The translations under genes and the position numbers were made by a program. The notes beneath the pieces were generated by a model, which saw only the letters and a list, made by a program, of their open reading frames with translations, had not been told where the DNA came from and searched no databases. Shown piece after piece: positions 10,216 through 29,658 of a stretch of DNA of 51,180 bases; the stretch's first letter is position 1; the number at the start of each line of letters is the position of its first letter. The stretch is from Acutalibacteraceae bacterium. GTDB taxonomy: Bacteria > Bacillota > Clostridia > Oscillospirales > Acutalibacteraceae. The DNA lies in contig JAZNHK010000213.1 in the NCBI GenBank assembly GCA_045576915.1, positions 1 to 51,180 on the forward strand, written 5' to 3'.

Positions 10216-10476
10216 TTACTTCCTTTCAACATTTAAACGTGCTAGAACATTATCATTGAGAAAGTCTTTGAAATTTTCTTTGGTTACACCTGTATAAACT
10301 TCGTCATCAACCTGTACAGTTACCCCAATGCGGTTACACTTGCCGATGCAAAAGCTACCGACAAGTGTTACCTGATTTTCCAAATGATAATCTTCAACGG
10401 CTTTTTGTAAAAGCTCAACAATTTCCTGAGAGCCTTTTAAGTGGCATGAGCTGCCAACACAAACCTGAATAATCAT
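10216..10476 (-). CDS. Thioredoxin-like [2Fe-2S] ferredoxin, tandem copy 2
   Basis: The four-Cys pattern is VCVGSSCH...FCIGKC, spaced Cx4C...Cx3C. The size is 86 aa. Confidence 0.7.
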   Translation of the reverse strand: MIIQVCVGSSCHLKGSQEIVELLQKAVEDYHLENQVTLVGSFCIGKCNRIGVTVQVDDEVYTGVTKENFKDFLNDNVLARLNVERK

Positions 10477-10477
10477 C

Positions 10478-10717
10478 TTATATCTTACCTTTTACGTTTT
10501 CTTCAAAAAACTCTGTTACTGTTTCGGGAGTTACTGAATAAAAATCATCATTAACAGTTACGCAAACACCCTGCTGACATTTACCCATACAAAATGTTCC
10601 GCCTAATTCTACTTTATCACCTAAATTGTTTTCTTTAATAAGGTACTGAAGCTGTTCAACAACCTGACGAGAACCTTTGATATGGCAAGAGCTACCGATA
10701 CAAACTGTAATTTTCAT
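10478..10717 (-). CDS. Thioredoxin-like [2Fe-2S] ferredoxin, tandem copy 1
   Basis: The four-Cys pattern is VCIGSSCH...FCMGKC. The protein is 79 aa and roughly half identical to the neighbouring copy. Confidence 0.7.
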   Translation of the reverse strand: MKITVCIGSSCHIKGSRQVVEQLQYLIKENNLGDKVELGGTFCMGKCQQGVCVTVNDDFYSVTPETVTEFFEENVKGKI

Positions 10718-10739
10718 TATATTTATCTCCTCTTTTTAA

Positions 10740-11489: not shown

Positions 11490-11507
11490 TTTAATATCTC
11501 CCTTCTC

Positions 11508-14207: not shown

Positions 14208-14271
14208 ATATATCCTCCTAATAAAAATTACAGATTTAATCGGGCAGCCTTGGCCTCGCCCTTGCTTAACT

Positions 14272-14289
14272 TTGTTATTATTTTAACAA
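14272..14289. promoter_or_regulatory. Rex (NADH/NAD+ redox repressor) operator candidate upstream of adhE
   Basis: TTGTTATTATTTTAACAA compared with the clostridial Rex consensus TTGTTAANNNNTTAACAA has one mismatch in the 14 constrained positions. The site lies 65-82 nt upstream of the adhE ATG. Confidence 0.6.
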
Positions 14290-14390
14290 CCCTAAGGCAA
14301 ATATGGAATTCTTAAAACATATAACTAGTGTTATCATTTTTGATAACACCTTCTTTTTGCTGTAAATTACTGACCTTTAACAACATAAAA

Positions 14391-15311
14391 TTATAAATGC
14401 TTCCTTTTGGATTCGCACAAAGCTGTAATAAACTGCCTGTCCAATTTGGAAAGCCTATACCCGTTTTTATAAATCAGAATATCTTTATAAACTTTTTTGT
14501 TATCCTTGCATTTTTTCTGCACAAGGTTATATCTTTTCAATAAACTTTCGGGTGCCGGTGAAACCCACATAAAGGTTTGCGGATTGATAGAAAGCAAATC
14601 GAACTGACTTGCCCTTTCAAAAATAAAAATTCTGCGGTTAATATTATCCGGCAACTCTTCTTTAACAACTTTAGAAAGTGGCATTGACGGAACATAAGGG
14701 TCTGCGTGGGCAATTTCAATATAATCCTTCAAATCATCAAAGGTTATTTCATCCTTTTGTGAAAGTGGATTTTCAACACTCATAAGTAAAGAATATGTAA
14801 ACTCTGTTACCAATTCATATTGAAAGCCCTTTTCCTCCAGCATAGATTTGAAATATCTGTCATAATTTTCTGCATATCTGATAATACCCAACTTATAATC
14901 GTGCTCAAGCATATTACGTATTGTTCGTTGGGAATTTGTTTCTTTATAAAATATTTCTGCCGCATCTTCGGAAAGTGATTTTGAAAACTCAGCAAAAGCT
15001 TCAGAGATATAACAAGCACGGGGGACAGAAATTGAAAACTCTTGTTTTTTGGCTACTCCGTTTTTATAAAAATCTTCAATATGTTCTATCTGACTCAGAA
15101 TACCCTTTGCAAAGCTTATAAACTCCTCCCCTTCAGGAGTAAGCTCCATACCTTTAGTGGTACGCTCAAAAATAGTTATTCCCAAGTCTGATTCAAGTTC
15201 TTTTATCGAACGGCTTATATTGGGCGTTGCAATAAGCAAGGTTTCTGAAGCCTTTCCTAAAGACCCTAACCTTGCAACTTCAACGGCATATTTCATATGA
15301 AGTAAATTCAT
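14391..15311 (-). CDS. LysR-family transcriptional regulator
   Basis: The HTH is MNLLHMKYAVEVARLGSLGKASETLLIATPNISRSIKELESDLGITIFERT. I moved the start to the internal Met, because the track ORF starts 18 codons earlier. Confidence 0.8.
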   Translation of the reverse strand: MNLLHMKYAVEVARLGSLGKASETLLIATPNISRSIKELESDLGITIFERTTKGMELTPEGEEFISFAKGILSQIEHIEDFYKNGVAKKQEFSISVPRACYISEAFAEFSKSLSEDAAEIFYKETNSQRTIRNMLEHDYKLGIIRYAENYDRYFKSMLEEKGFQYELVTEFTYSLLMSVENPLSQKDEITFDDLKDYIEIAHADPYVPSMPLSKVVKEELPDNINRRIFIFERASQFDLLSINPQTFMWVSPAPESLLKRYNLVQKKCKDNKKVYKDILIYKNGYRLSKLDRQFITALCESKRKHL

Positions 15312-15514
15312 TCCGGTACACCACCCTTTTTTTCCGATTATAGCACCGGAATATATAAAAATCAATTAGAAATATAAAGCATAATAATATCTCATATTGA
15401 AATCTTTAATATAAGTATTGTATAATTATTTTCAATCAGAAATTTCAAAAACCACCGAACCCCTTCTTTTTATTTTCACAAATATTTACAAACACTTTAA
15501 CCGGAGGAAATTAT

Positions 15515-16120
15515 ATGAAACTGATTTTATCATCTTATGATTTTCTTAAAGTAGAATCTAAAAACCTTATAACTGAACACCTGACGAAGCCGTTAAACGA
15601 ATGTCGCATACTTTTTATCCCCGATGAAACTGCTACTTCAGAAATTATAGAAAGTGATTTCTATTACAAGAATTTGTGCGAATACGGCTTCAAACGTGAA
15701 AATATTTTTATTTTCAATCACACAAAAGCCCAAAAATTCACTAATCTACCAATAGATGTTATATACGTAGGTGGCGGAAACACTTTCGGTATAATTGATA
15801 AAATCCGTAAATGCAATTTTGATACTGCCATAATAAACTATGTAAAAGCAGGAGTTGTATACATAGGTGTCAGTGCAGGTGCACATATTGTTACACAAAA
15901 CATTGAACACATTCTGGAATATGATGATAACAACGTAAATTTAACGGATTTCAGCGGTCTTGGACTTTATGACGGTATCATTGTTTGCCACTACACCTAC
16001 CACCGTAAAGACCATCTGGATAGACTGATAGCAGAAAAAAAGTACAAAGTAGACTATTTAACAGATTCTGATTGTATTGTTCACACAGATAAAGAAACAT
16101 TCACTTACCAATGGTGGTAA
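15515..16120 (+). CDS. Peptidase S51 (dipeptidase E-like)
   Basis: Motifs YVGGGNTF and GVSAGAHIV are present in a 201-aa protein. A GGAGGA RBS precedes the start. Confidence 0.65.
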   Translation: MKLILSSYDFLKVESKNLITEHLTKPLNECRILFIPDETATSEIIESDFYYKNLCEYGFKRENIFIFNHTKAQKFTNLPIDVIYVGGGNTFGIIDKIRKCNFDTAIINYVKAGVVYIGVSAGAHIVTQNIEHILEYDDNNVNLTDFSGLGLYDGIIVCHYTYHRKDHLDRLIAEKKYKVDYLTDSDCIVHTDKETFTYQWW

Positions 16121-16139
16121 GTGAATGTTTTTTGCTATA

Positions 16140-17360
16140 TTACTCGCCTTCAACCAACTCAAAGGTATCCTGAGCAATCATAAGTTCTTCGTTTGTTGGA
16201 ATTACGAACATTTTAATTTTTGACTCAGATGTAGAAAACTCTATTTCTTCGCCTCGGGTATTGTTTTTAGCTTCATCTATTTCCACGCCCATAAAAGCGA
16301 GTTTTTCTGCAACAGCTTTCCTGTATTTGGGGTTATTTTCACCTATACCACCTGTGAAAACAATTGCATCAACGCCACCCATTGCAGCTGCAAAGGAGCC
16401 TACATATTTCGTAAGCTGATGGCAAAGCATTTTTTCTACAAGAATTGCTTTTTCATTACCATCTTTAATAAGTTTTTCTATCGCAATGTTGTCACTGGTT
16501 TTTTGGGTAATACCCAACATTCCTGACTTTTTGTTTAATACCTCATCAACTTGCTTAACTGTAAGCTTCTCTTTTTCCATAAGCACACCCACAATTGCAG
16601 GGTCAATGCTACCGCAACGAGTACCCATCATAATACCCTCAAGAGGTGTAAGACCCATTGTTGTATCAAAGCATTTACCATCAACAATGGCAGAAATAGA
16701 GGAACCGTTACCAAGATGGCAGGTTATAATTTTACTATGCTCAGGGTCACCTAAAAGCTCATTGCAACGCCTTGAAACAAATCTGTGAGAGGTTCCGTGA
16801 AAACCATATTTACGAATACCATAGTTTTCATAATATTCATAAGGCAATGCATACATATATGCAAAATCCGGCATTGTCTGATGAAATGCAGTATCAAAAA
16901 CAGCTACCTGAGGAACACCGGGTAAAAGCTCTTCAAAAGCCTTAATGCCTGTTAAGTTTGCAGGATTGTGCAATGGTCCTAAAGGAATACATTCTTCAAT
17001 AGCTTTTTTTACATCCTCATTAACAACAACAGATTCGCTGAATTTTTCACCAGCGTGAAGAACTCTATGTCCCACAGCGTGTATTTCAGAAAGCTCTTTT
17101 ACAACCCCAACAACAGGATGCTTAAGAATTTCAACAAGATCTTCTATAGCTTCATAATGAGTCATTTTTTCTTTAAGCTGCTCTTTATCGAGTACTTTTA
17201 TAAACTCATCATCGGAACCCGGTATCTTGTGGGTAACTGTTGCAACTGAGGTTGATTCAAGCTGAGAAAATATACCCGTACACAAAACATTACCACTGGG
17301 CATAGCAAAAACAGTATATTTAAGTGATGAACTACCACAATTTATTACTAAAACTTTCAT
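16140..17360 (-). CDS. ackA: Acetate kinase
   Basis: MKVLVINCGSSSLKY is the canonical N-terminus, and GFHGTSH and GGIGEN motifs are present. The start is trimmed to the Met that has an AAGGTG RBS. Confidence 0.93.
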   Translation of the reverse strand: MKVLVINCGSSSLKYTVFAMPSGNVLCTGIFSQLESTSVATVTHKIPGSDDEFIKVLDKEQLKEKMTHYEAIEDLVEILKHPVVGVVKELSEIHAVGHRVLHAGEKFSESVVVNEDVKKAIEECIPLGPLHNPANLTGIKAFEELLPGVPQVAVFDTAFHQTMPDFAYMYALPYEYYENYGIRKYGFHGTSHRFVSRRCNELLGDPEHSKIITCHLGNGSSISAIVDGKCFDTTMGLTPLEGIMMGTRCGSIDPAIVGVLMEKEKLTVKQVDEVLNKKSGMLGITQKTSDNIAIEKLIKDGNEKAILVEKMLCHQLTKYVGSFAAAMGGVDAIVFTGGIGENNPKYRKAVAEKLAFMGVEIDEAKNNTRGEEIEFSTSESKIKMFVIPTNEELMIAQDTFELVEGE

Positions 17361-17473
17361 ACTAAACACCTTCAAAATAAATTTATATAAATACTTTAAA
17401 TCCTCTTTAGATAAGTCGCCCATTCAAACCTCGTCTCCTCATAATATTTTAACACATAGAGCTTCAAAGTCAA

Positions 17474-19135
17474 TCAAAACACTGAACAATCCTCAAGATC
17501 AAATTCATAGGAATTCTTTTTACACCATTTCTTAAAGGCGGCATAAATGAATTCATTTGAATCGATACTTCGGTTATCCTTTAAATACGCCTGAATTATA
17601 TTATTGCTTTCGGTATCAACTTGTATAGCTGCAACATACTTCCCGAATTTCAAAACACCAACTACCGGAGTATCAAACTCTTCAGCACCTAAGCAGTTAT
17701 CAAGCTCTTGTCCTGCTATCAGATAGTCATTCATTGATTTCAACGGAGAAAAAACAAGACCATCCACCCGTTGCACAGGAATCCCTTCTGCTAAATCACG
17801 CTCGGGTATATTCAAAAAATACTGTGAAACGCCATTACCGAAACGCATACATCTGCAAGATGTCAGTTTAAGCCTTTCCTTTTCATCCTCTCTTTTTTTG
17901 TCACTCAACGATGCGTAAATCAAGGCATACTCGTTAACCGACTCGGGATAATCCGCCAGCATATTTTTAAAAGGAACATACAAATCCTCTTTGCAAATAT
18001 CCTCATATAATCTTGAAATTACAGGGAAATCGTGTAAAAAGCGTAAATTTGAAAACACGTGCTTATTATCCAAAAAAGCTCCAAAAAAATTAGGCTCTTT
18101 TCCCGTACATTCCCACAATTTTTCAAGTTCATCAACATAAAAGAACAATGCAGGATTTTTAAACATTTTCTTTCTGATTGATTTCATTTGTGGCAAAGAG
18201 GATTGTTGATAAAGGGATACAATATCATCACTAAAATGCAATTTTAAACTGATATCCTCAAATGATTCATCAATTTCCTTTGTTCCTCGTCTGTAGGGAA
18301 TATAAATATAAAACGAGGTATCCTCGTAACCTATGTATGCTGTTGCCAAAGAGAATGTATATATATCAAGCTGATATTCTCTGAAGGGTAAAGGCTTACC
18401 CCAGAATTCAGCAAAAAGCCTCTTCAGTTTCCTTTTTATCAAGACATTTTTAGAAAGTACATCAATAAGAGGACTTTCAAAATCACAGGCATCCACACCC
18501 ATAGTGATATCTCTTGACATCAAGGTGTTACCTGATAATGTTTTAAGCTCCAATACAGTAGTGCCTTTATTGAAATTGAAGGTTATATATTCACAAAGGG
18601 GAAATTCGTTAATGTTTAAATACTCTTCATTCCAGTTAACATGCACAATATCCCCTATACTCTTCAAAGGATATGAAACGATTACCTCTTCATCTGTTTT
18701 AGTAAATGTCACCAAAACTTTTGATTCATTGCATTTGGATTCAGCACCGCAATGCATACATTTAAAGGTATCTGATTCGGTAATAGGTTTATATAATGGT
18801 ATCACTTTATTACGGGTTTCGAAAAATGACATTGCCTCTTCCAACCACAAACTGGCATCATTTTTTGAAAATAATTTCTTGGGTTCATAATCTCCACGTA
18901 TAAAGTGCATATAAGCAGGGGTCTGCTGTCCACAATGAGGGCACACGACAAAATGTGACGTAAGCTTAACAACATCTTCATTTTTTAAAATTTCAATGCT
19001 TGTATATTTGAATTGATTATTTCCGGAAAGATTTGTGTTAAATGCTGTATAAACATCAACAACTGTAACTTCTTCACAAATTTTGCAGCCTCTGGGTACA
19101 GCAACTACTTCACAATTATTCTCCAACACACTCAC
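17474..19135 (-). CDS. Zn-ribbon protein with a PcfJ-like C-terminal domain. It is the last gene of the accessory operon.
   Basis: Three CxxC pairs are present: CKIC, CPHC and CMHC. The C-terminal stretch FSPLKSMNDYLIAGQELDNCLGAEEFDTPVVGVLKFGKYVAAIQVDTESNNIIQAYLKDN follows the PcfJ-domain pattern as I recall it. The gene starts 5 nt after the preceding gene. Confidence 0.45.
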   Translation of the reverse strand: MSVLENNCEVVAVPRGCKICEEVTVVDVYTAFNTNLSGNNQFKYTSIEILKNEDVVKLTSHFVVCPHCGQQTPAYMHFIRGDYEPKKLFSKNDASLWLEEAMSFFETRNKVIPLYKPITESDTFKCMHCGAESKCNESKVLVTFTKTDEEVIVSYPLKSIGDIVHVNWNEEYLNINEFPLCEYITFNFNKGTTVLELKTLSGNTLMSRDITMGVDACDFESPLIDVLSKNVLIKRKLKRLFAEFWGKPLPFREYQLDIYTFSLATAYIGYEDTSFYIYIPYRRGTKEIDESFEDISLKLHFSDDIVSLYQQSSLPQMKSIRKKMFKNPALFFYVDELEKLWECTGKEPNFFGAFLDNKHVFSNLRFLHDFPVISRLYEDICKEDLYVPFKNMLADYPESVNEYALIYASLSDKKREDEKERLKLTSCRCMRFGNGVSQYFLNIPERDLAEGIPVQRVDGLVFSPLKSMNDYLIAGQELDNCLGAEEFDTPVVGVLKFGKYVAAIQVDTESNNIIQAYLKDNRSIDSNEFIYAAFKKWCKKNSYEFDLEDCSVF

Positions 19136-19140
19136 TCCTT

Positions 19141-19830
19141 TTATTCAATAACAACAACATTGTTATAAAGTATTCTGATGTTATCACTTTCGTTTGCATA
19201 TTTATCCAAATGAAAATGACCTGCAAACCACTTCTTATACTCTACAGTAGTTCTTACATCATCAAGAAAATCTGTAAAATGCTTGTCAGGTTTGTCATCA
19301 ACATCGAAACCGAGCATTCTGATTACGGATGAGGGTAAGGTGTGGGTCATAATATAATCCACTTTGTTACCCACCTTCTCAAGGCTTGCTCTACCCTCAT
19401 TTATTTCATCCTGATTGGGAATCTCTTCATCCCAATAGGAAACATTACGAACTTTGAAACCACGGTCCACACTAAACGCTCCGCCGAAGGTAAAAAAGCT
19501 CTTTCCCTCTATATCAAAAACTTGTCCACGCATAAGGTGAATAATATTTGGGCGAATGCGATGAACCTTCCCTCCGTTCCACTCTTCAACGGGAAATTTT
19601 TTGGTGTCATTCAAAAGAGGAAATCGTTCATGGTTTCCGTCCAGAAACAGAATTGTGTACTTTCTTTCAGTAAGCTTTTCAAAATTGTCGTGGGCAAACT
19701 GAGAATCTGAAAAAAGGAACCCCCAGTCCCCACAAATTATCACGTAATCTTTTTCAGTCGGCTCAAACATCTCTTCAATATACTCGAATTTATCCAAGCC
19801 CCCGTGGGTATCTCCCGTAATAAAAAACAT
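19141..19830 (-). CDS. Calcineurin-like metallophosphoesterase
   Basis: All five motifs are present: ITGDTHG, CGDWGF, DGNHE, MTHT and GHFH. The start is set at the Met preceded by AAAGGAG, because the track ORF starts 7 codons earlier. Confidence 0.8.
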   Translation of the reverse strand: MFFITGDTHGGLDKFEYIEEMFEPTEKDYVIICGDWGFLFSDSQFAHDNFEKLTERKYTILFLDGNHERFPLLNDTKKFPVEEWNGGKVHRIRPNIIHLMRGQVFDIEGKSFFTFGGAFSVDRGFKVRNVSYWDEEIPNQDEINEGRASLEKVGNKVDYIMTHTLPSSVIRMLGFDVDDKPDKHFTDFLDDVRTTVEYKKWFAGHFHLDKYANESDNIRILYNNVVVIE

Positions 19831-19841
19831 AACGGCTCCTT

Positions 19842-21581
19842 TCAGGCACAAAAGCCTTTAATCTTTTTACTTTCAGTTACTTCATCATCTGAATACATTT
19901 CTTTGGCATAAAGCTTTACAAATTCTTCATTCACAACAATAGGTAACTGTTCGCCTTGTTCAATCTGAATATTGACCTCACCTAACAAATGCTCAATCTG
20001 CTGACCCATATTTCTTGCTCCGTAATCCTTTGTGGTTTTAGCAATTGCTAATAAACCATCCTTTGAAAAAACAACCTCGTCATCTGTAAAATTGTATTTT
20101 TTCATATACTTGGGAGCAATAAATTGTTCACCTACTTCAGCTTTTTTATTGAAATCGTATGCAGGTATAGTAAAAATATTACCACGGAACCTGTCTACGA
20201 TATGTTCACTTACACCACTCATATCGTTACAGGTAACAACGAATGTAAAACCATCTACCGGGCAATCATATTCACTGAATCGGTCCTGCAAAACTCTTCT
20301 GTCATCAAAGATACTGTCAAAAGCACTATGGGTATCACCTTCCTTAGTGTTATGTGCAATTTTATCAAGCTCATCCAACAGCACAAGCCCTCTGCCTCTT
20401 GCACGACGGATTTCCTCCAGAACAGTACCATGACGTGCACCATCATAAATTCTGTCGGCTCCCATAAGCTCAAGAGGACTTTTGTTTTTACAAGGAATTG
20501 ATATATATATCAGATGCAGACACTCTGCAATTCCTTTGGCTAAACTGCTTTTACCGGTACCGGGAGGGCCTAAAAGGACAAACACCGTTCCGGTAGTCCT
20601 GTTACGTGCTAACAAACGAATCTGACGGGCAATACCTTCAATGAGCTCATCATCTCCGTGGTGATATTTGCGAAGGATTGTGACGCACTCTTCGTACGAT
20701 GGTGGTTCAACATATCCATCAACATCTTCAAGACAGGTATGCAAAATATCAGAAAGAACCATACCTGCATCCTTACTGGACTTGCTACCTCCACGCATCT
20801 CTTTAATAAGAGATTTACATTTCACCCTTAATTCAGGTGAAAGAGAATTTTCGCAAAGGCTGAACATTGTCTGGAGAGCTTTGCTGTCAGTTAATACTTC
20901 CTTCGTGTTTGAAAATAATAATTCTTCTTCATTCTCTTCTACGATTTCTTTCTGAGCATTTTTCAGAATAAAATCCTTAATATCGGGTGAGCAATCAGCA
21001 AAATTTGAAATATTCGAAGCTCGGGAATCGAGATCCTCAAAAATAAAAAAGTATTTATATGTTTCAGGATGTACCAGACACAAAACGCTACCGGTAAGCT
21101 GCTGGGTATGTCTGTTTCTTTTGTATTCAAAAATACACTCGTAATCACCGGGTTCAACAACATCAAGTAAAGTAGAAGAATCGTTTATATCAGCATTAAA
21201 AATTCCTGCTGACTCGGCAAAAACATTTACCTTTGTACCTTTAAGATTTTTGACATCCTGAATATAAAGCGTTGTTGATGCAATATGTCTTCTGTATCTT
21301 TCATAAACCTCTTCAGGACTATAGCCGAAATCAGGGTCATCATCCAAATCAATTTCAAGAGTATCATCACTCACACTTGAATATGTATTAGAAGCAACAC
21401 GCTCAGTCACAACGTCGGTTTTATTTCCCACAATATTTTCATCCTTCTCAGAGTGCTTCGTATCAGCGTTTTTAAGCTCATCCCTTTTTTTATATTCAAT
21501 AAAAATCTCACCAACTGAAACAATATAGCTGACAAGCTTTGTAAAAGTACCAATCTTACGTTTTTTCTTTGAAACTCCCAT
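19842..21581 (-). CDS. Lon-type AAA+ ATPase without a protease domain, carrying a unique N-terminal region of about 300 aa
   Basis: Walker A is LLGPPGTGKSSLAKGIAE and Walker B is VLLDELDK. The segment is colinear with the LonA ATPase and lid (HHGDDELIEGI...FVVTCN...IVDRF...YGARNMGQQIE). The protein ends at residue 579 with no Ser-Lys peptidase domain. Confidence 0.7.
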   Translation of the reverse strand: MGVSKKKRKIGTFTKLVSYIVSVGEIFIEYKKRDELKNADTKHSEKDENIVGNKTDVVTERVASNTYSSVSDDTLEIDLDDDPDFGYSPEEVYERYRRHIASTTLYIQDVKNLKGTKVNVFAESAGIFNADINDSSTLLDVVEPGDYECIFEYKRNRHTQQLTGSVLCLVHPETYKYFFIFEDLDSRASNISNFADCSPDIKDFILKNAQKEIVEENEEELLFSNTKEVLTDSKALQTMFSLCENSLSPELRVKCKSLIKEMRGGSKSSKDAGMVLSDILHTCLEDVDGYVEPPSYEECVTILRKYHHGDDELIEGIARQIRLLARNRTTGTVFVLLGPPGTGKSSLAKGIAECLHLIYISIPCKNKSPLELMGADRIYDGARHGTVLEEIRRARGRGLVLLDELDKIAHNTKEGDTHSAFDSIFDDRRVLQDRFSEYDCPVDGFTFVVTCNDMSGVSEHIVDRFRGNIFTIPAYDFNKKAEVGEQFIAPKYMKKYNFTDDEVVFSKDGLLAIAKTTKDYGARNMGQQIEHLLGEVNIQIEQGEQLPIVVNEEFVKLYAKEMYSDDEVTESKKIKGFCA

Positions 21582-21605
21582 TATAAAAACCTCCTTTTAA
21601 CTGCT

Positions 21606-22679
21606 TCAAACCGCTTTTTCTTCATTTAAATATTTATCTATCAGTCTGTAATATTCCTTTACAGAGCTTTTTGCGTATTTAGCAGAATTTATCTCCGAAA
21701 CCTGAGTTATATATCCTATTAAATCCTCATCTGCCGAAACATAATTTTTAAAATCATCCTCATAGGCCTGAGAGTTTGAAAAAACAATCATATTCTTGTA
21801 TTTTGCATCTACGCTGTTAAATAATTCGACTTCATTATGCTCGTACGCATGAAAAATTTCGTGGCACAAGGTTTCCAATACATCCTCTGCCAGACTTGAT
21901 TCAATATGTCTGTGATTTATAACCACAGAATGTTCCTTATGGCTGTAATAGCCTAAAACTCCGTCATCCATAACTCCTGCTGACAGGTGTACTTTGTGAG
22001 GAATTCCAAGATAAGCCACTTCAATGTTCCGTATAACCTTCAACACCTCAAGTTTTTCATCTACAGAAAGCTTTTTCCAATCGTCCTCTCTCAGAAGCTT
22101 TACTGTATCAATATTATTTTTAACAGTCCATTGCTCTGCAGATTCGGAATTTGCACCCTCAAGTGCATAATCATCAGACTTTGCAAGTTGCACACCATAG
22201 ATAGAAAACAGAACTGAAACACCAAGAAGCACACAAGCTAAAGCACCTGCAATTGCCCTTATTCCATTAAGAGCAAAGCCCACTCTGTGTCTGACTATTC
22301 TTTTAGCATTTTGCTTGTTTTTGATTTTTTTAAAAACAACAATACAAAAATACAATGCTGACAAAACAACAATTACTGCTACAAAAGCACCTATGTATTT
22401 ATTATAGGCTGATGAATATGTAATTAAAAAATATGGAATATAAGCCAATGCAACATTAAAAACGACATTATATTCGTTTCTTTTTCTAGCCGGTGTTATT
22501 AAAGAAAATATAAACCAGATTACCTGATTACAACCAAAATACATCAGTTTTGATTTCATTACACTGGCACCGGGAATATGAACAAACAAGAAAACATAAT
22601 AAAGAGCACAAACCACAAAGGCTACATTTAAATGCCGCAAAAAATATTCGATATATGGCATACATTTTTTCTTTTTCAT
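21606..22679 (-). CDS. Polytopic membrane protein with a C-terminal HExxH (zincin-like) domain
   Basis: About five hydrophobic helices occupy residues 15-165. A soluble domain follows, containing GVLGYYSHKEHSVVINHRHI...TLCHEIFHAYEH. A GGAGG RBS precedes the start. Confidence 0.55.
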   Translation of the reverse strand: MKKKKCMPYIEYFLRHLNVAFVVCALYYVFLFVHIPGASVMKSKLMYFGCNQVIWFIFSLITPARKRNEYNVVFNVALAYIPYFLITYSSAYNKYIGAFVAVIVVLSALYFCIVVFKKIKNKQNAKRIVRHRVGFALNGIRAIAGALACVLLGVSVLFSIYGVQLAKSDDYALEGANSESAEQWTVKNNIDTVKLLREDDWKKLSVDEKLEVLKVIRNIEVAYLGIPHKVHLSAGVMDDGVLGYYSHKEHSVVINHRHIESSLAEDVLETLCHEIFHAYEHNEVELFNSVDAKYKNMIVFSNSQAYEDDFKNYVSADEDLIGYITQVSEINSAKYAKSSVKEYYRLIDKYLNEEKAV

Positions 22680-22726
22680 TTATTACGCCTCCTTATAATT
22701 ACCTAAAACGTAATGGTTACATCAGT

Positions 22727-23125
22727 TTATTCCTCTTCAGGATAAATCTCCAAAACCTCGTAACCCATATACTCACAATCTTCATCAGGTTCAACAAGCG
22801 ATTCTTTTGTAAAGTAAAAAAATTTAAGCTTCATATATACAGTTGCATTTATATTTTCATCACCGTACTTTTCAATAAAGCTGTCCAGAACAGCGCCGCT
22901 TAAATACAAATCAAAAAAAACGACTTTATCATTTTCATTGTCTATTACTTTGGCTGTCGCTCTTACTGTATCACCCGGTTTCATTTTAATTACCTTGGCC
23001 TCATCAATCCAAACTCTGATTAAACATCCCTTAATATGAACAGGTACTCTGTCAAGCTCTTTTCCGTTATATACTGCTGGTCTTAACTCCAACTTTTTAA
23101 CTTCCTTATAAAATGTTTTTTCCAT
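22727..23125 (-). CDS. Hypothetical 132-aa protein, the first gene of the accessory operon
   Basis: The start is chosen at MEKTFYKEV because a GGAGGA motif sits 8 nt upstream. I recognise no motif in the protein. Confidence 0.5.
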   Translation of the reverse strand: MEKTFYKEVKKLELRPAVYNGKELDRVPVHIKGCLIRVWIDEAKVIKMKPGDTVRATAKVIDNENDKVVFFDLYLSGAVLDSFIEKYGDENINATVYMKLKFFYFTKESLVEPDEDCEYMGYEVLEIYPEEE

Positions 23126-23283
23126 TTTTCTTTCCTCCATTTTAAATTTAAAAATGTACAAAACAGTTTGTTGATTCGTAGAAATAAAGTTTGTTTTTAG
23201 TCGAAAAAACAAAAACTCACATATCCCTGATTTTAAAAATAATACACGAAACTTCCAATTCTCAATTACTTACCACAAAAAAT

Positions 23284-23304
23284 TTATCACACTTGTTGTG
23301 ATAA
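23284..23304. promoter_or_regulatory. Perfect palindrome TTATCACA-N5-TGTGATAA upstream of the accessory operon, a candidate operator
   Basis: Read directly from the sequence. A third half-site-like TTTGTGAT follows immediately. The palindrome lies about 160 nt upstream of the 22727-23125 gene start. Confidence 0.5.
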
Positions 23305-23349
23305 TTTGTGATCGCTTTCAAAAAAACATTTTTCTTTATTGTTTTTCTT

Positions 23350-23619
23350 TTATAAGTAATCAAGATGAATACCGGCTTCAACTATACGTTTTAACATTTC
23401 GAACTTATTTTTAGCATCTTCTTTTTCTATGTTATTCAGTTCGTATAAATGAGGAATTTCTTCTTTTTTATTGTACTTAGCGAAATTAACCTCTTCCCCC
23501 GCTTCATAAACAATAACAATAAAATCATCGCAAGAATTGCTGATTTCAATGATCTTGATATATTCAGCGATATCACCATATCTGTTTACACATCTGAATA
23601 AGTTTGTAGGTTTATCCAT
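23350..23619 (-). CDS. Hypothetical 89-aa protein
   Basis: The start at MDKPTNLF is preceded by GGAGGTG. I recognise no motif in the protein. Confidence 0.45.
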   Translation of the reverse strand: MDKPTNLFRCVNRYGDIAEYIKIIEISNSCDDFIVIVYEAGEEVNFAKYNKKEEIPHLYELNNIEKEDAKNKFEMLKRIVEAGIHLDYL

Positions 23620-23765
23620 AAGTTCACCTCCCCTATAAATAATTATAAGAATGGCTTTTTCACCTCTCAATAACATTAAATATCAAAAAACTTTTCTTTT
23701 TGTGAAAAAGACTTGATTTTTAATAGATTATGTTATATTCTCAAAAAAGCAAAGGAGGTCGTATT

Positions 23766-25193
23766 ATGGGTAAATCTACAAAAAGCCAAAAAGGTTTATG
23801 TATATGGATGTGGCAATATTTTGTAAAGTTGGGAGTATCCCGCAGTTTTACAAAAACTATGCAACTTCTTTTCAATGTAGGAAGCGAAGAAACCGACAGA
23901 GGTTATCACACCCGTTTCAAACAAGACAGACTTCCTCAACACCTTTTTGATCCAAAACACGATTTGCTTTCATATTTTGAAAACACGTTATATTATAAAT
24001 TGAAAGAAAAAAATGGCGGTGACTTCGGTGAGCTGTACGCTATTTTATATAACAGTCTTCAATTATTAACAGGGGATGATTGTGACTACACTATCCCCGA
24101 CAGATTGAAAAAATCCAGTTCTATAGCACTGGATAGTTTAATTGATTATGTAAAAAGAAGAAACAGCTCAATTGACATTAATAGCAGTATTTTCTTCGCA
24201 CAACATTTATATAGTGTAATTTACTTTTTCGGTAAAGGCTTCTGTCCACCATCGAAGTCTGATGAAATATTCCAATTGGCTGATTGCAGAACAGAGCTGA
24301 TGGAACGCGTTATTCTGCCTTTTGGCTTATCCACAAAGCCCGGTATGTATCAGGTTATCAAGCTTGCCGAAGAGGGCAATCCCTTGGCATTGTATGAATG
24401 CAGCGGATTATATTATTATGGAATAATCTGCCCTGAGCCCAATTATCAGAAATCCTTTGATTATTGCCTTAGGGCAATAAAGGCAACTCCCCCTGCACCC
24501 ATAGCATTCTGGGATTATGGATATATGCTCTACAACTACAAAAGGCCGGGCACAGAGTTAGAAAATGCGTTTATTGCCCAATTGGAGTATATGGATCCTA
24601 TTGACAGAATCCGCTTAGCAATAAGCTATGAGCATAAGGCTGCTGCTTGCGGAATTGTTGCAGCATTCAATGTTCTTGGTAATATGGCAAATGACCCGAA
24701 TGTTCCTATGGAAATAAAAAAGGAATTCAACCTTACAGATCCCGAAAAGCTCTGGAAAAAAGCAGCTGACAACAATTACGTATTCTCTCTTGGCAACCTG
24801 AGTGAATTATATGAGCAACGTGCTTTAAAGGAAGAGAACCCTGAAAAGAAAAAAGAGCTTATGGATTTATCCTTTGATTACCTGATAAAGGCAGCAGACC
24901 AATATGGTGCATGGGCTAACAACACTCTGGGGTTGAAGTATTATAAAAAGAATCAATTTCCCGAAGCATATAATCACTTCAGCAGAGCAAAGACCGTCGA
25001 TTATATCTGGGGTTACTACAATCTTCTTGAAAAATACCATTTACCCTCTTATCTGACAGGAAATAGCCCATCATATCTGGATAAAGAAATCAAAATTGAA
25101 GATTTAATAAAGGTTTGCATAAACGCAAAAAACCAAGAAGTTGCCGAAAGAACAAAAGATTTATTAAAGAACCATCCTGAATTACTTAAATAA
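23766..25193 (+). CDS. Sel1-like/TPR repeat protein
   Basis: Repeats of the form AEEGNPLALYECSGLYYYG, AAACGIVAAFNVLGNM and AADQYGAWANNTLGLKYY are present. The start is set at the Met after AAAGGAGG. Confidence 0.6.
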   Translation: MGKSTKSQKGLCIWMWQYFVKLGVSRSFTKTMQLLFNVGSEETDRGYHTRFKQDRLPQHLFDPKHDLLSYFENTLYYKLKEKNGGDFGELYAILYNSLQLLTGDDCDYTIPDRLKKSSSIALDSLIDYVKRRNSSIDINSSIFFAQHLYSVIYFFGKGFCPPSKSDEIFQLADCRTELMERVILPFGLSTKPGMYQVIKLAEEGNPLALYECSGLYYYGIICPEPNYQKSFDYCLRAIKATPPAPIAFWDYGYMLYNYKRPGTELENAFIAQLEYMDPIDRIRLAISYEHKAAACGIVAAFNVLGNMANDPNVPMEIKKEFNLTDPEKLWKKAADNNYVFSLGNLSELYEQRALKEENPEKKKELMDLSFDYLIKAADQYGAWANNTLGLKYYKKNQFPEAYNHFSRAKTVDYIWGYYNLLEKYHLPSYLTGNSPSYLDKEIKIEDLIKVCINAKNQEVAERTKDLLKNHPELLK

Positions 25194-25210
25194 TTTTCAA
25201 ATTATTAGAG

Positions 25211-25253
25211 AAAAAAACCAAGAGCATTGCGATTGCAATGCTCTTGGTTTTTG
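25211..25253. terminator. Bidirectional intrinsic terminator
   Basis: A 13-bp perfect stem pairs CCAAGAGCATTGC with GCAATGCTCTTGG. It is flanked by an A-run and a T-run. Confidence 0.8.
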
Positions 25254-25264
25254 CTTTAGTCAAA

Positions 25265-26011
25265 TCAGATAACATTATTCTTTGCAATAATAGATGTTTT
25301 GCCATTGAACGAAAGCGGTTTGCCATCAAATGTTGTTACAACACCGCCTGCTTCCTCAACAAGCAATTTACCTGCTGCAAAATCCCATGGAGAAACCTGT
25401 AATTCAAAATACAGGTCGGCTCTGCCTGACGCAACAGAACACAAATCCAATGCCGCTGAACCACATCTTCTGATATCAAGGGCATCATTGAGATATTGTG
25501 CGGCAATCTGAAATGTTTTTTCAGAAAGAGTTTTATCATAAGGTGATGTACCAAACAAAACAAGAGCATTACTTAACGGTGCTGAAGAAACCTTTATTTT
25601 ATTGCCATTACAAAAAGCACCACAGCCCTTTATAGCATAAAAGATTTCATTGAGATAAGGATTATAAACAACACCTGCCTCAGGCTCGCCATCCTTCAAC
25701 AACGCCACAGAAATTGCACTTATGTGATAATCCTTAATAAAGTTTGTTGTACCGTCAATGGGATCAACAACAAAGGCATAGCCCTCTGATGTCAACTCAT
25801 CACTTGAGCCCTCTTCACCTATTAACTTTGCTTCTGGCAAAATCTTTTTCAAGCCCTCAAAAAGCTGTTTCTGAATTTTTGTATCATATTCTGTAACCAG
25901 ATCTGCAATACCTGACTTTGTATCAATCGCCATTTTTTCTCTATCGGCATTAAGTATTACCTTGCCACATTCTTTTACTAAATTACAAATTTCGTTTATT
26001 ATTTTCATCAT
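25265..26011 (-). CDS. Inositol monophosphatase-family protein
   Basis: The FVVDPIDGTTNF signature is present, and the length is about 248 aa from the MMKII start. Confidence 0.8.
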   Translation of the reverse strand: MMKIINEICNLVKECGKVILNADREKMAIDTKSGIADLVTEYDTKIQKQLFEGLKKILPEAKLIGEEGSSDELTSEGYAFVVDPIDGTTNFIKDYHISAISVALLKDGEPEAGVVYNPYLNEIFYAIKGCGAFCNGNKIKVSSAPLSNALVLFGTSPYDKTLSEKTFQIAAQYLNDALDIRRCGSAALDLCSVASGRADLYFELQVSPWDFAAGKLLVEEAGGVVTTFDGKPLSFNGKTSIIAKNNVI

Positions 26012-26159
26012 AAATCTATCACCAACATTTTTAATTATTGACATATTATATCAACAAAAATATTACTTTTCAATAAAAACTCTTTCTTTATTGAAAAGCT
26101 TTTACCAGAATGATATAATAGTATATTGATAATAAAATTATTAGCTAGGTTGTGAAACT

Positions 26160-28490
26160 ATGTCAACAAAACTTTGGTATGATGAATTTGTAAACGAATG
26201 GATGTGGGCTTTGCCATTAGGTAACGGCAGAATAGGTGCTATGGCTTATGGTAATCCCGACTGTGAACAAATTGAAATAAATGAAGAATCTCTTTGGAGT
26301 GGCAAGCAGATTCAGGAAAAATACCATGCTTCACCCGAGGCATTAGCAAAAATTCGTCAGCTTATCCACGAAGAAAAGCTTAAAGAAGCTGCTCAACTGG
26401 CTCGTGAAACATTTTTATCCGACCCACCTGTTGTGCGTTCCTATGAAAGCTTCGGAGAAATTTTTGTTGATTTCCTCGATAAATCCCCCTACTCCAACTA
26501 CCGCAAGGAGTTGGAACTAAGTGAAGCTATTGCACGAGTTTATTGGACAAAGAGCAAGGCAAATTACAAAAGTGAATGTTTTATAAGCACAGATTTTGAT
26601 AGCTTTGTTTATAAGGTTGAAACTGATGGGAAGCCCTTTTCCTGCAACGTAACAGTAAAGAGAAAACAGGATGCTTACAGTGCTTGTATTGCACCCGACA
26701 CAATTATTATGAACGGCAGAACAGCCTACAATACCCACCACTATTATGGTGAGGGTGGTGAGGGTATGTCCTTTGGTGCAAAGCTCCGTATTAAAACAGA
26801 TGGTGAGCTTACCTCTGACCACAGCACAATTACTGTTATCAATGCAACATACGTTATAATTTTCAGTGCATTTGAAACAAACTATGACGTTAACAAATAC
26901 GATATTGATGAAACAATCAATTTCAAAAATAAATTAACCGAAACCATTGAGAAACTCTGTAGTGCAGAATATGAGGATATAAAAGAAAACCATATTTCAA
27001 CTCATAAAAAATGGTTCGGTAATGTTGAACTTAAGCTCGAAGAAACACCAATAAGTGCTCTCCCAACAAACAAAAGACTCAAAGAGCTTAAATGGGATGA
27101 ATACGACCCTGATTTATTCGCTCTTTACTATAATTTCGGCAGATATCTTTTAATTGAAAGCTCGGGCAAAAATGCTCGTCTTCCTGCCAACCTGCAGGGC
27201 ATCTGGTGTCACGATTTCAATCCACCCTGGGGTAGCGATTTCCACACCAATATAAATCTTCAGATGAACTATTGGCCAAGTGAAAGTGCAAACCTTTCAG
27301 GCACAAGTGCACCATTTATACATTTTATGAAAATGGTAAGCTCCTTTGGTTCCAAAACCGCAAAAGAGCTTTTTGGTGCAAGGGGTTGGGTAATTAACCA
27401 CACAACCGATGCTTTCGGCAGAACCGGTGTTCACGACAGTGTTGATTGTGGTTTCTTCCCTATGGCAGGTCCTTGGCTTTGTCTTAATCTCTGGGAGCAT
27501 TACGAATACACCAACAGCAAAGAATACCTTGAAGAAATATACCCTATTTTAAAAGGTTCCTGCGAATTTGTTCAGGATTATTTAACAGAAAACGAAAATG
27601 GTGAGCTCATCACCTCGCCCTCCAATTCGCCCGAAAACGAATTTCATTACATAGACGCCAATGGCGAAAAGCAAGAGAGTATGTTCACCGAGGGTGCAAC
27701 AATAGATTTCCAGATTATTTACGCTCTTTTCACCCGCACTGCTCACGCTTGCAAGGTGCTTGGTATTGACGAAGATTTTTCAAAAACGCTTTTTGAAGTT
27801 TTAGATAAGCTTCCCCCTATGGAAATAAGCGAACGTTACGGAACAATACGTGAATGGATTAAGGATTATGAAGAAACCGAACCCGGACACCGTCATATTT
27901 CTCACCTTTTTGGTCTTTTCCCTGCCGATCAGATTAACGAAAGTAACCCTGAAATATATGAGGCTGCAAAAAGAACTATTGCACGAAGAATTGAAAACGG
28001 CGGTGGTTCAACAGGTTGGTCCAGAGCCTGGACAATCTGCTTCTACACACGTCTTAAGGATGCTAAGAACTCTTACACTCACCTGAAATACCTGCTTGAA
28101 AAATGCACCGCCAACAACCTTTTTGACATTCATCCACCATTCCAGATTGATGGTAACTTTGGCGGTGTTGCAGCAATTACAGAAATGCTTCTTCAAAGTC
28201 ATCTGGGTTCACCCGACAACAGAATTGCAGAGCTTTTACCCGCTTTACCCGATGAATGGACTAATGGCTCAGTTAAGGGAATCAGAGCAAGAGGCAATTT
28301 AACCTTTGATTTAAGTTGGAACAATTCGCTTCTCAAAGAAGCAAAGGTTACCGCCGCACAAGACTCTGTAATAACCATTAAGTTAAATGATAAAACAAAG
28401 AATCTTAAATCAGACAAAGTTTTCACTATTGAAGATAACCTCTTTAAAGCAGAACTTTCTGCAGGTGAAACCATTACATTAACGAATTAA
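26160..28490 (+). CDS. Glycoside hydrolase family 95 (alpha-L-fucosidase-like)
   Basis: The N-terminus LWYDE...WMWALPLGNGRIGAMAYGN...EINEESLWSG is typical of GH95. The size is 776 aa. Confidence 0.8.
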   Translation: MSTKLWYDEFVNEWMWALPLGNGRIGAMAYGNPDCEQIEINEESLWSGKQIQEKYHASPEALAKIRQLIHEEKLKEAAQLARETFLSDPPVVRSYESFGEIFVDFLDKSPYSNYRKELELSEAIARVYWTKSKANYKSECFISTDFDSFVYKVETDGKPFSCNVTVKRKQDAYSACIAPDTIIMNGRTAYNTHHYYGEGGEGMSFGAKLRIKTDGELTSDHSTITVINATYVIIFSAFETNYDVNKYDIDETINFKNKLTETIEKLCSAEYEDIKENHISTHKKWFGNVELKLEETPISALPTNKRLKELKWDEYDPDLFALYYNFGRYLLIESSGKNARLPANLQGIWCHDFNPPWGSDFHTNINLQMNYWPSESANLSGTSAPFIHFMKMVSSFGSKTAKELFGARGWVINHTTDAFGRTGVHDSVDCGFFPMAGPWLCLNLWEHYEYTNSKEYLEEIYPILKGSCEFVQDYLTENENGELITSPSNSPENEFHYIDANGEKQESMFTEGATIDFQIIYALFTRTAHACKVLGIDEDFSKTLFEVLDKLPPMEISERYGTIREWIKDYEETEPGHRHISHLFGLFPADQINESNPEIYEAAKRTIARRIENGGGSTGWSRAWTICFYTRLKDAKNSYTHLKYLLEKCTANNLFDIHPPFQIDGNFGGVAAITEMLLQSHLGSPDNRIAELLPALPDEWTNGSVKGIRARGNLTFDLSWNNSLLKEAKVTAAQDSVITIKLNDKTKNLKSDKVFTIEDNLFKAELSAGETITLTN

Positions 28491-28509
28491 CTCTATTGGA
28501 GGTCCTTCA

Positions 28510-29658
28510 ATGTCAGAATTAAAGGATTTTATAACTAAGATTTTTGACAATGAAATAAACAAGGCGGTTATTAGCAAACCCATTTCAAAGCAAGGCGAAT
28601 TCAAAAAAATTACCATAAGCAGAATGCCTAAATTTTTCCAGATTGCAAAGCATACAGAAAAACAAGTTTTCCACGAAAATGTGCAATTTGATGAGGCTGC
28701 AAGTCGTGCATCCGAGCTTATGAAAAATGATTTTTTACAATTCAACGCGTGGGATAATGATAAAGAATATTACATAACCGCATCTAAAAACGGTAAACTT
28801 TTTTATAAAACAAGAAACACAGGTAACGAAACACCCTCTGCACCCGTTCAGCACAATCGTCAGAAAAAATATCTTCTCCCCGAAGGTAAGGTTATTGAAC
28901 CACTTGTTGATATGGGCATTTTCACAAAGGACGGCAAGGTTGTTAACTCAATGTATGACAAATACAAGCAGATTAACCGCCTTATTGAAATAATTGATGA
29001 TGGTGTGCGTCAGCAGAATTTAACTAGATTAAATATTATTGATTTCGGATGTGGTAAATCTTATTTAACTTTTATCGTTTACTATTATTTAACCGAAATT
29101 AAAAAAATTGATACTACCATAATCGGCCTTGACTTAAAAAAAGATGTTATTGAAAAATGCAACAAAGCAGCCCTGAAATACGGCTATAAAAATCTCCGCT
29201 TCGAGTTAGGCGATATCAATGGTTACAAATGTCCTTTTGATGTTGATATGGTAATTACTCTACACGCTTGTGACACCGCAACAGATTTTGCACTTTACAA
29301 CGCAGTTAACTGGGGTGCAAAAATGATATTCTCCGTACCCTGTTGCCAACACGAATTAAACCAGCAGATAAAAACCGAAAATCTTTCTGTTTTAACCCGT
29401 TACGGAATTATTCAGGAACGATTTTCTGCTTTGCTAACAGACAGTATCAGAGGAAATCTTCTTGAATACTGCGGTTATAAAACTCAGCTTTTAGAATTCA
29501 TTGATTTTGCACACACGCCTAAGAACATTCTTATCCGTGCAGTGCTTAAGGGCACTAACCCCAAATCCGCAAAGGAAAAGGCTTTGGGCGAAGTAAAAAA
29601 GGCTATGGAAGAATTCAACGTTGAGCCGACATTATACAAGTTACTTTTAGGTGATTAA
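28510..29658 (+). CDS. Class I SAM-dependent methyltransferase
   Basis: Motif I is IIDFGCGKSYLTF. A GGAGG RBS precedes the start. Confidence 0.65.
   Translation: MSELKDFITKIFDNEINKAVISKPISKQGEFKKITISRMPKFFQIAKHTEKQVFHENVQFDEAASRASELMKNDFLQFNAWDNDKEYYITASKNGKLFYKTRNTGNETPSAPVQHNRQKKYLLPEGKVIEPLVDMGIFTKDGKVVNSMYDKYKQINRLIEIIDDGVRQQNLTRLNIIDFGCGKSYLTFIVYYYLTEIKKIDTTIIGLDLKKDVIEKCNKAALKYGYKNLRFELGDINGYKCPFDVDMVITLHACDTATDFALYNAVNWGAKMIFSVPCCQHELNQQIKTENLSVLTRYGIIQERFSALLTDSIRGNLLEYCGYKTQLLEFIDFAHTPKNILIRAVLKGTNPKSAKEKALGEVKKAMEEFNVEPTLYKLLLGD

Follow-up and report, generated by a model that had tools for sequence, protein, structure and literature searches.

A LonA-type AAA+ protein without a peptidase domain in a four-gene cassette of an Acutalibacteraceae bacterium, and its possible docking on ClpP

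To our knowledge, the ATPase of the LonA proteins described so far is always fused to a peptidase of its own, and ClpP is served only by ATPases of the ClpX and Hsp100 types. HslU, PAN, Mpa and Cdc48 use their C-terminal tails to bind to HslV or the 20S proteasome and to open it. Here we analyze the gene at positions 19842-21581 of a 51,180-nucleotide stretch of DNA from an Acutalibacteraceae bacterium (GenBank assembly GCA_045576915.1, contig JAZNHK010000213.1), the whole of which is called the window below. We are highly confident that its product, P0001, is a LonA-derived and probably active AAA+ unfoldase that has no peptidase of its own, carries a private N-terminal domain and belongs to a new four-gene cassette. 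Its most likely mechanism, in our judgment at even odds, would be to work in trans with the ClpP of its host by means of a C-terminal Gly-Phe tail, as a modeled complex suggests.

P0001 has its Walker, pore-loop, sensor and Arg-finger residues at the same positions as LonA (E. coli Lon, B. subtilis LonA and human LONP1). However, it lacks both the PF02190 domain and the S16 domain of these proteins, and it has a private N-terminal domain and a C-terminal Gly-Phe tail. With ClpX, ClpA, ClpC and ClpE it shares the separation of unfoldase from peptidase and a Gly-Phe pair on a flexible element, predicted to lie in a ClpP pocket. Yet its ATPase is of the Lon type and not of the ClpX or Hsp100 type, the motif is on a C-terminal tail whereas in those proteins it is on an internal loop of the large domain, no zinc-binding domain or Clp N-domain is present, and the residue before the Gly is a Lys. 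The likeness to HslU and the proteasomal ATPases consists of a C-terminal tail that places a hydrophobic or aromatic residue between peptidase subunits, but the motif in those proteins is HbYX or GQYL instead of xGF, the peptidase is different and so is the AAA+ clade.

The LonA-type ATPase module and the missing peptidase domain

According to the open reading frame (ORF) list and the translation, the coding strand of the ORF at 19842-21581 is the minus strand. An AAGGAGG ribosome-binding site lies 8 nucleotides upstream of the ATG. The gene and the parts of its product are the following:

19842..21581, minus strand: gene of P0001, a protease-less LonA-type AAA+ protein of 579 amino acids, with an ATG start
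21294..21581, minus strand: residues 1-96, N-terminal segment that varies within the family, with a basic/hydrophobic helix and then an acidic linker of low complexity
20892..21293, minus strand: residues 97-230, domain specific to the family, with beta strands (about 98-170) and then helices (172-209)
20712..20891, minus strand: residues 231-290, LonA-type three-helix bundle, from the VIA fold alignment
19896..20711, minus strand: residues 291-562, AAA+ alpha/beta domain and alpha-helical lid, from motifs and Pfam AAA (6e-12)
19845..19895, minus strand: residues 563-579, disordered C-terminal tail ending in KKIKGFCA, with a predicted local distance difference test (pLDDT) value below 50
19851-19856, minus strand: Gly576-Phe577, proposed ClpP-docking motif, invariant in the family

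The original prediction assigned the ATPase to LonA on the basis of sequence motifs, and all those it quoted were found in the translation: HHGDDELIEGI (residues 307-317), GPPGTGKSSLAKGIAE (338-353), VLLDELDK (400-407), FVVTCN (447-452), IVDRF (461-465), YGARNMGQQIE (520-530) and the N-terminal stretch MGVSKKKRKIGTFTKLVSYIVSVGEIFI. The assignment itself was borne out, as NCBIfam TIGR00763, a phmmer search of the PDB sequences and the VIA fold comparison each ranked Lon first, and the best match was LonA and not another AAA+ clade such as MoxR or RuvB. TIGR00763 ('lon') was the top NCBIfam model with 100.5 bits, aligning residues 324-551 with positions 346-568 of its 795; this score falls far short of the family cut-off of 608 bits, as two thirds of the model have no counterpart in P0001. 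The runners-up in NCBIfam were ClpX, ClpV and ClpB, with E values of 6e-6 or worse. Among the PDB sequences, the top 32 distinct matches were all LonA or mitochondrial LONP1 (E of 1.8e-21 to 1.7e-11), covering residues 301-555 approximately, and ClpB came next with 4e-8. The matches in Pfam were of the AAA type only, represented by the generic family PF00004 (6e-12, residues 335-469), and no Lon_C family was among them.

An AlphaFold2 model of P0001 was built from an alignment of 7 sequences (mean pLDDT of 71.9; predicted template modeling score, pTM, of 0.56). When compared with VIA, residues 232-563 of this model aligned with residues 250-584 of the E. coli LonA AAA+ domain 6n2i (Z of 27.6, root-mean-square deviation, rmsd, of 3.1, 324 aligned residues and 21% identity). 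The LonA fragment 4ypn, comprising the three-helix bundle and the AAA-alpha/beta domain, matched residues 232-474 with a Z of 21.9, whereas the D2 modules of Clp proteins reached a Z of only about 18.8 and aligned from residue 283. Foldseek agreed with VIA on the LonA fold. Colinearity with LonA had been predicted to begin at about residue 300; the actual start is near residue 232 because residues 232-290 correspond to the LonA three-helix bundle (Lon residues 245-300 approximately). The bundle by itself is not distinctive, as 4ypn scored a Z of 6.3 among generic bundles when a model of the N-terminal domain alone was used.

The absence of the peptidase domain, also claimed by the original prediction, was supported in several ways. 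No S16 Ser-Lys peptidase domain (PF05362) was detected in P0001 with Pfam. In the VIA alignment the end of the model, residue 563, coincides with Lon 584 and the protein terminates at the equivalent of Lon 584-595, and no degenerate protease fold was found at the C-terminus. Only 12 nucleotides separate the stop codon from the start of the following gene. A tblastn search of the whole window with the protease domain of the genome's own Lon (228 amino acids) gave a best E value of 0.65. The full Lon of the genome (813 amino acids, contig C65) matched the window only through its residues 324-583, at 19917-20675. At the other end of the protein, residues 1-300 had no Pfam match, not even at E up to 10, and hence no PF02190 LON N-domain.

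The motor itself appears to be intact. Ten full-length members of the family, P0001 among them, are encoded by uninterrupted ORFs of 538 to 629 amino acids, with 24 to 49% identity to P0001. They all keep 1) the Walker A GxPGxGK(S/T) and the Walker B D-E-x-(D/E)-K, 2) the pore-loop-1 Tyr379 within (R/K)xYxG, colinear with the Lon sequence RRTYxGAxPG, and 3) the sensor-1 T-x-N, the Arg464 in (D/N/S)RF and the sensor-2 G-(A/V/M)-R. From the sequences, this looks like the functional pattern of an active, substrate-translocating AAA+ ring and not like that of a decaying remnant. The alternative, that the gene is what remains of a truncated Lon gene and has no function, agrees with the loss of two of the three LonA regions. 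It is however effectively refuted by the conservation pattern: ten full-length ORFs remain intact down to 24% identity, with the motifs, the private N-terminal domain and the tail all kept. The strong ribosome-binding site, the position in an operon and the presence of a canonical Lon elsewhere in the genome argue in the same direction.

Protease-less Lon-like ATPases already exist without being annotated as such. One family of 494 amino acids (e.g. P0058 of Sellimonas intestinalis), annotated in databases only as 'AAA family ATPase', is 27% identical to P0001 over residues 290-541 of the latter. It was present in four of nine sampled genomes of one Clostridia family, with 63 to 74% identity, and at the two loci inspected it stands alone among unrelated neighbors (L141, 6138-7625, plus strand; L142, 4923-6500, minus strand). 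It differs from P0001 in having an unrelated N-terminal half and no Gly-Phe tail.

The whole N-terminal half of P0001 had been considered novel. This stands for residues 1-230, which match nothing known, but not for residues 232-290, the LonA bundle described above. Residues 1-96 are modeled with pLDDT below 50, as a low-confidence helix (11-39) followed by the acidic linker, and their sequence is not conserved across the family. No segment reached the Kyte-Doolittle transmembrane threshold of 1.6 in the six family members scanned; the N-terminal helix would thus be amphipathic and membrane-grazing at most. Residues 97-230, in turn, fold confidently. In a model of the N-terminal domain alone, built from 12 sequences (mean pLDDT of 80), residues 99-199 have pLDDT above 90 and form a small beta domain followed by helices. 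No fold match to this domain could be trusted in the PDB: Foldseek returned nothing at E up to 1e-3, and its best match, the substrate-binding domain of DnaK, was rejected as a relative (E of 0.018, TM score of 0.18, rmsd of about 17). The highest Z obtained with VIA among 48,161 representatives was 7.0. All of these matches lay in the three-helix bundle, and with generic bundles of this kind filling the list the search hardly probed the beta part. The Atlas search with the domain scored 0.76, which is noise level. A phmmer search of 1.84 billion cluster representatives with residues 90-310 retrieved 12 proteins, namely the query, eight family members (401 to 629 amino acids) and three long repetitive proteins matched in multiple stretches. 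Residues 97-230 thus have no detectable relative beyond about ten family clusters among these representatives. We presume that they form a substrate- or adaptor-binding domain.

The C-terminal tail and ClpP

Gly576 and Phe577 are invariant in the ten full-length members, although the tails otherwise vary in sequence and length. Endings with Lys before the Gly are KKIKGFCA, KAVKGFCA, KVVKGFCA and KQIKGFGS; the others are QKTMGFVA, TKMGFRLEA, RSIGFNSNF and RSIGFSPDD..., and RKMGF stands at the very end in two members. Two further sequences, P0007 and P0124, do not have the motif, but both end within the AAA module and appear to be fragments. From the end of the alignment at Lon 584, we infer that the tail leaves the ring on the face that contacts the peptidase in Lon. 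According to a published account (PMC8745299), ATPases that partner with ClpP have a flexible loop with the tripeptide (L/I/V)-G-(F/L), and this loop enters hydrophobic pockets between adjacent ClpP monomers. In the genome analyzed here (G000) the corresponding loop of ClpX reads KTVLGFGAE, and the genes tig, clpP, clpX and lon lie together on contig C65. A second and weaker ClpP-family ORF, separate from this cluster, is found on contig C180 (locus L104, 4769-5263, minus strand; 73.6 bits, in an open frame of 259 amino acids).

A leftover of the Lon linker LGxPK(F/Y) was considered as the origin of the Gly-Phe pair and rejected. In the Lon of this genome the linker directly follows NLEEF, whereas the counterpart of NLEEF in P0001 is EEFVKLYAKEMY and the Gly-Phe is located 12 residues further on.

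Three copies of ClpP (alignment of 12 rows) and residues 520-579 of P0001 (alignment of 10 rows) were submitted to complex prediction. The median score was 0.62 (0.61, 0.63 and 0.62 in the individual runs), while the best of three controls reached 0.02. The mark of 0.62 is reached by 116 of 157 solved complexes and by 2 of 215 mismatched pairs, figures that hold only roughly here because of the custom alignments and the multi-copy set-up. The runs agreed in at least 75% of the contacts, and the pLDDT of the partner was at least 56. Only residues 571-579 of P0001 form the confident part of the predicted interface. Phe577 is predicted to contact positions 49 and 83 of one ClpP subunit and positions 61, 63, 91, 93, 113, 115 and 190 of its neighbor, whereas Gly576 would contact position 29 of that same neighbor. 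A ClpXP cryo-electron microscopy preprint (10.1101/638692) lists Ile28, Leu49, Tyr63, Phe83, Ile90 and Leu115 as the pocket residues common to the IGF loops and to acyldepsipeptides (ADEPs).

Several points weigh against a partnership with ClpP. The positions contacted in the prediction equal or adjoin the published pocket residues by number only, the ClpP sequences being unaligned. The residue before the Gly is Lys in four of the ten full-length members (P0001 and its three nearest relatives), Ile or Met occupying this place in the other six. ClpX-ClpP complexes have been solved, so the passing score may reflect nothing but the likeness of the tail to an IGF loop. ClpP was the sole target of the tail in the complex prediction, which included no cassette protein. 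Finally, we know of no ClpP partner that has either a motif in a C-terminal tail or a Lon-type module. The model supports binding to ClpP and, as a prediction, does not show it. In our search of the literature, neither a Lon-type ATPase bearing a motif for docking on ClpP nor the four-gene cassette was found described.

The arrangement that we propose is as follows. P0001 would be a hexameric unfoldase and translocase derived from LonA that has lost both the N-domain of canonical Lon proteins and the S16 peptidase in cis. Residues 97-230 would select substrates or adaptors, and the three-helix bundle together with the ATPase ring would pull the polypeptide through a pore lined with Tyr379. The flexible, basic Gly-Phe tail would take the role that the (L/I/V)-G-(F/L) loops have in ClpX, ClpA and ClpC: the ring would insert its six tails between ClpP subunits, in their hydrophobic pockets, and the host ClpP would serve as the proteolytic chamber. 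The remaining products of the operon would be the likeliest adaptors, regulators or substrates of P0001. Of all this, the data show the identity of the module by sequence and predicted fold, the missing protease domain, the conserved motifs and tail, and the layout of the operon, while the hexamer, the unfoldase activity, the docking on ClpP, the substrates and the biological role are inferred.

If correct, this would make P0001 the first ClpP partner of the Lon type and would indicate that the two main bacterial AAA+ protease systems can be rewired in nature by the loss of a domain and the gain of a motif of a few residues. It would define a new class of ClpP partners, relevant to ClpP-targeting antibiotics such as the ADEPs, which use the same pocket, and would offer a compact model for the evolution of unfoldase-peptidase pairings. 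Should the docking on ClpP be wrong, there would remain a very rare protease-less derivative of LonA whose N-terminal domain and four-gene cassette are both new.

The operon and its products

P0001 is encoded in a group of four minus-strand genes, separated by gaps of 24, about 11 and about 5 to 11 nucleotides, each with an AAGGAG(G) site. The neighboring genes, in the direction of transcription, are the following:

22727..23676, minus strand: two small ORFs of 161 and 108 amino acids, upstream of the cassette and only possibly part of it
21606..22679, minus strand: P0102, membrane protein of 357 amino acids, with some five transmembrane helices and, at the C-terminus, an SprT-like HExxH domain predicted to be extracytoplasmic, upstream of P0001
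19141..19830, minus strand: P0104, intact calcineurin-like metallophosphoesterase (Pfam Metallophos, 4e-11; phrog_1649, 1.3e-37)
17474..19135, minus strand: P0103, Cys-rich, zinc-ribbon-like protein of 551-553 amino acids with a PcfJ-like C-terminal domain, last gene of the operon

The TGA stop codon of P0001 abuts an AAGGAG site. The ATG of P0104 comes 4 nucleotides after this site, about 12 nucleotides from the stop; this ATG, at 19830, is the likely start, although the listed ORF begins with a TTG at 19851.

Close homologues are scarce: a database of 5.8 billion clusters yielded six each for P0001, P0103 and P0102. Linkage among these families was judged from coinciding sizes of the longest recorded contigs of the homologues, which pair them as follows:

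35668-nucleotide contig: AAA+ protein P0003 and PcfJ-like protein P0111
5356-nucleotide contig: AAA+ protein P0002 and PcfJ-like protein P0113
204154-nucleotide contig: AAA+ protein P0106 and HExxH protein P0117
6894-nucleotide contig: AAA+ protein P0108 and HExxH protein P0118
4472-nucleotide contig: PcfJ-like protein P0114 and HExxH protein P0119

This suggests that the AAA+, PcfJ-like and HExxH families, all three of them rare, travel together. The last contig, at 4472 nucleotides, is too short to hold in addition a full AAA+ gene and a phosphoesterase gene, so a cassette devoid of the AAA+ protein may exist, which also tells against our reading of P0001.

The original prediction took the adjacent membrane protein, P0102, for the obvious effector of the ATPase, which would amount to a split machine of the FtsH kind. 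P0102 does resemble a zincin. Its score in Pfam SprT-like is below the cut-off (2e-3, 18.4 bits versus 25.6), but five of six homologues carry a precomputed PF10263, and the profile of the family shares HEMxHAY with the SprT domain of Spartan (E of 0.046). His273, Glu274 and His277 are invariant in the family. The invariance of the motif, the adjacency of the two genes across a gap of 24 nucleotides and the occurrence of homologues of both on the contigs of 204154 and 6894 nucleotides speak for such an effector. However, the topology of P0102, calculated by hand with the positive-inside rule, points elsewhere. In seven of seven members of the family basic residues (Lys or Arg) are concentrated at the N-terminus (3-5), in the loop 65-71 (3-4) and in the loop 117-139 (7-10); the latter contains 0-1 Asp or Glu, the other loops have 0-2 Lys or Arg, and beyond the last transmembrane helix the sequence turns acidic. 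By that rule, the basic loops place the HExxH domain outside the cell, whereas P0001, in which no hydrophobic segment reaches the transmembrane threshold, should be cytoplasmic. The zincin is for this reason a poor candidate for the protease of the motor. It also resembles monomeric domains of the SprT/Spartan type and not a self-compartmentalized chamber, and the tail motif of P0001 points to ClpP. We therefore consider an HExxH effector improbable. Since the HExxH gene appears to be genetically linked to the AAA+ gene, a functional tie between the two products is still likely.

A different possibility is that P0001 is not proteolytic at all and, as an unfoldase or segregase on its own, remodels, activates or takes apart a protein of the cassette (the PcfJ-like protein, the phosphoesterase or the cytoplasmic loops of the zincin), with the Gly-Phe tail binding that partner or a neighboring subunit. 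Many AAA+ proteins work without a peptidase. The tight operon with its coupled genes and the apparent sharing of contigs by the three rare families would suit this activity, and the acidic linker of P0001 might contact the loop of P0102 that is very basic and cytoplasmic. Yet the invariant Gly-Phe at the end that faces the peptidase is built like a motif for docking on ClpP, the prediction places it in the ClpP pocket, and it is kept even in distant members with 24 to 25% identity. A stand-alone remodeler appears to us possible, but less likely than docking on ClpP.

Concerning the two downstream genes, P0104 matched no PDB sequence at E up to 0.01. P0103 begins with a GTG preceded by an AAGGAG site and shows two invariant pairs of Cys residues (C65/C68 and C126/C129) and an NCLG motif. 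All of its 30 matches in the Atlas fell in the PcfJ set (0.96), but within the three best-ranked clusters the Pfam family is present in only 14 to 44% of the members. The direct match to Pfam PcfJ (PF14284) is weak, with an E value of 0.2 and 11.9 bits for residues 430-523 versus a cut-off of 25, and 14 bits in the genome search; P0103 also matched phrog_16315 (7.5e-7). Our literature search found PcfJ mentioned in passing only and no functional account of it. The cassette ties a PcfJ-like protein to regulated unfolding or proteolysis, and could give a first experimental handle on PcfJ, a widespread family of mobile elements for which no function is known.

The two small upstream ORFs had no match in Pfam, NCBIfam or PADLOC. 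Divergent from them, on the plus strand, lies a gene for a protein of 487 amino acids (23730-25193) with weak matches to TPR/Sel1 repeats and to the phage family phrog_8741 (7.7e-5).

Distribution and chromosomal setting

The distribution of P0001 was determined on samples in which many genomes are incomplete. Its N-terminal 300 residues had no match in 60 other species of the same genus, nor in the 399 other genomes scored from a sample of the class (one further genome was unscored). Among 201 genomes of the family, a full-length match was present in G000 only, the two other matches being canonical Lon proteins of about 800 amino acids. In the order, 119 of 401 genomes matched at E up to 1e-40, and all except G000 did so from profile position 191 onward; since only this part was matched, in frames of 645 to 915 amino acids, these are canonical Lon proteins. 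The alignment of the P0001 family (A1) gave 85 pattern matches in genome contigs, none of them confirmed. In metagenome contigs there were 595 pattern matches and 104 relatives, of which the 80 retained all had 24 to 44% identity restricted to the AAA region. Viral contigs contained three distant AAA matches with alignment A1 and none confirmed out of 32 with alignment A2, whose profile found nothing meaningful in the PDB either. With tblastn, P0001 matched nine phage records, all through Lon-like AAA regions with 24 to 30% identity, and P0103 matched neither phages nor plasmids. A separate search of genome contigs with P0004 gave 34 pattern matches and one relative, on a scaffold of the Gamma 3 symbiont of the gutless worm Olavius (L101, 10001-11092, plus strand; 26% identity to residues 212-587 of P0004), which is probably a canonical Lon.

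The contig belongs to the genus in which it was binned. The aspartokinase of the window is 97% identical to that of G983, a genome of the same genus, and positions 9002-15346 and 26156-29000 align with a single contig of G976, also of this genus, at 85% and 77%. An erroneous binning is ruled out by that aspartokinase and by these 9.2 kb of flanks at 77 to 85% identity. In G976 the orthologue of the aspartokinase gene (contig C23, 101350-102687, minus strand) contains one in-frame TGA inside the match.

Between the two aligned blocks, one with LysR and AdhE genes and the other with a GH95 gene, there is a variable slot of 10.8 kb (15347-26155). In the window it contains an S51 peptidase, an acetate kinase, the cassette, the two small ORFs, the TPR/Sel1 protein and an inositol monophosphatase. 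Its counterpart in G976 is unrelated, measures 4.4 kb and encodes a 310-amino-acid protein, a GFO/IDH/MocA oxidoreductase and a Na:Ala symporter. The cassette is thus accessory and located in a variable slot of the chromosome.

These features bear on the possibility that the cassette is an anti-phage or anti-plasmid defence system, or a counter-defence or addiction module that a mobile element left behind, with the ATPase as sensor or executor according to a logic like that of IetA and DolB. The extremely patchy distribution and the different contents of the slot in G976 agree with this role, and so does the fact that all four operon proteins matched PHROG families. In PADLOC, P0001 had weak matches to DolB (1e-7, 29.6 bits, residues 317-504) and IetA (9e-6, 23.3 bits, residues 299-362), and the other six neighboring proteins tested had no match. 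IetA of IetAS and DolB of Dodola are likewise AAA+ ATPases of small accessory cassettes. However, the match to IetA stops at the P-loop after some 60 residues and Lon is a far better match for P0001; partial or weak similarities of this sort are expected between any AAA+ modules. The partner genes of those systems (the S8 protease IetS, and DolA) are absent near P0001. No integrase, recombinase or known defence gene was identified in the 51-kb window, and no recognizable mobility gene in the slot, the GC content is unremarkable, and P0103 remained unmatched in the phage and plasmid collections. A defence or mobile-element role is in our view possible, though well short of an even chance, and it is compatible with docking on ClpP as well as with other molecular mechanisms. 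The patchiness, the PcfJ-like partner and the PHROG matches make us lean towards a conflict or mobile-element role. Combining both lines, we tentatively propose, at somewhat less than even confidence, a rare and probably conflict-related system in which a Lon-derived ATPase drives the host ClpP through its tail, and the private N-terminal domain and the partner proteins redirect ClpP to specific targets.

Other genes of the window deserve mention. The acetate kinase of the slot (16140-17423, minus strand) is 49 to 50% identical to the ackA products of five genomes of the same genus, compared with 80 to 97% for other genes of the window. No other ackA was found in this genome, whose completeness is 84%, and the slot may carry the gene as a xenologous copy. 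At the start of the window (3-3176, minus strand), an ORF of at least 1058 amino acids extends beyond the sequence and matches no family in Pfam at E up to 1e-5. The three consecutive genes at 5929-10209 (minus strand) encode an [FeFe]-hydrogenase-like protein with PAS and Fe-S domains, a phosphatase of the SpoIIE type and another hydrogenase-like protein, which has ferredoxin domains, and look like a sensory hydrogenase signaling unit.

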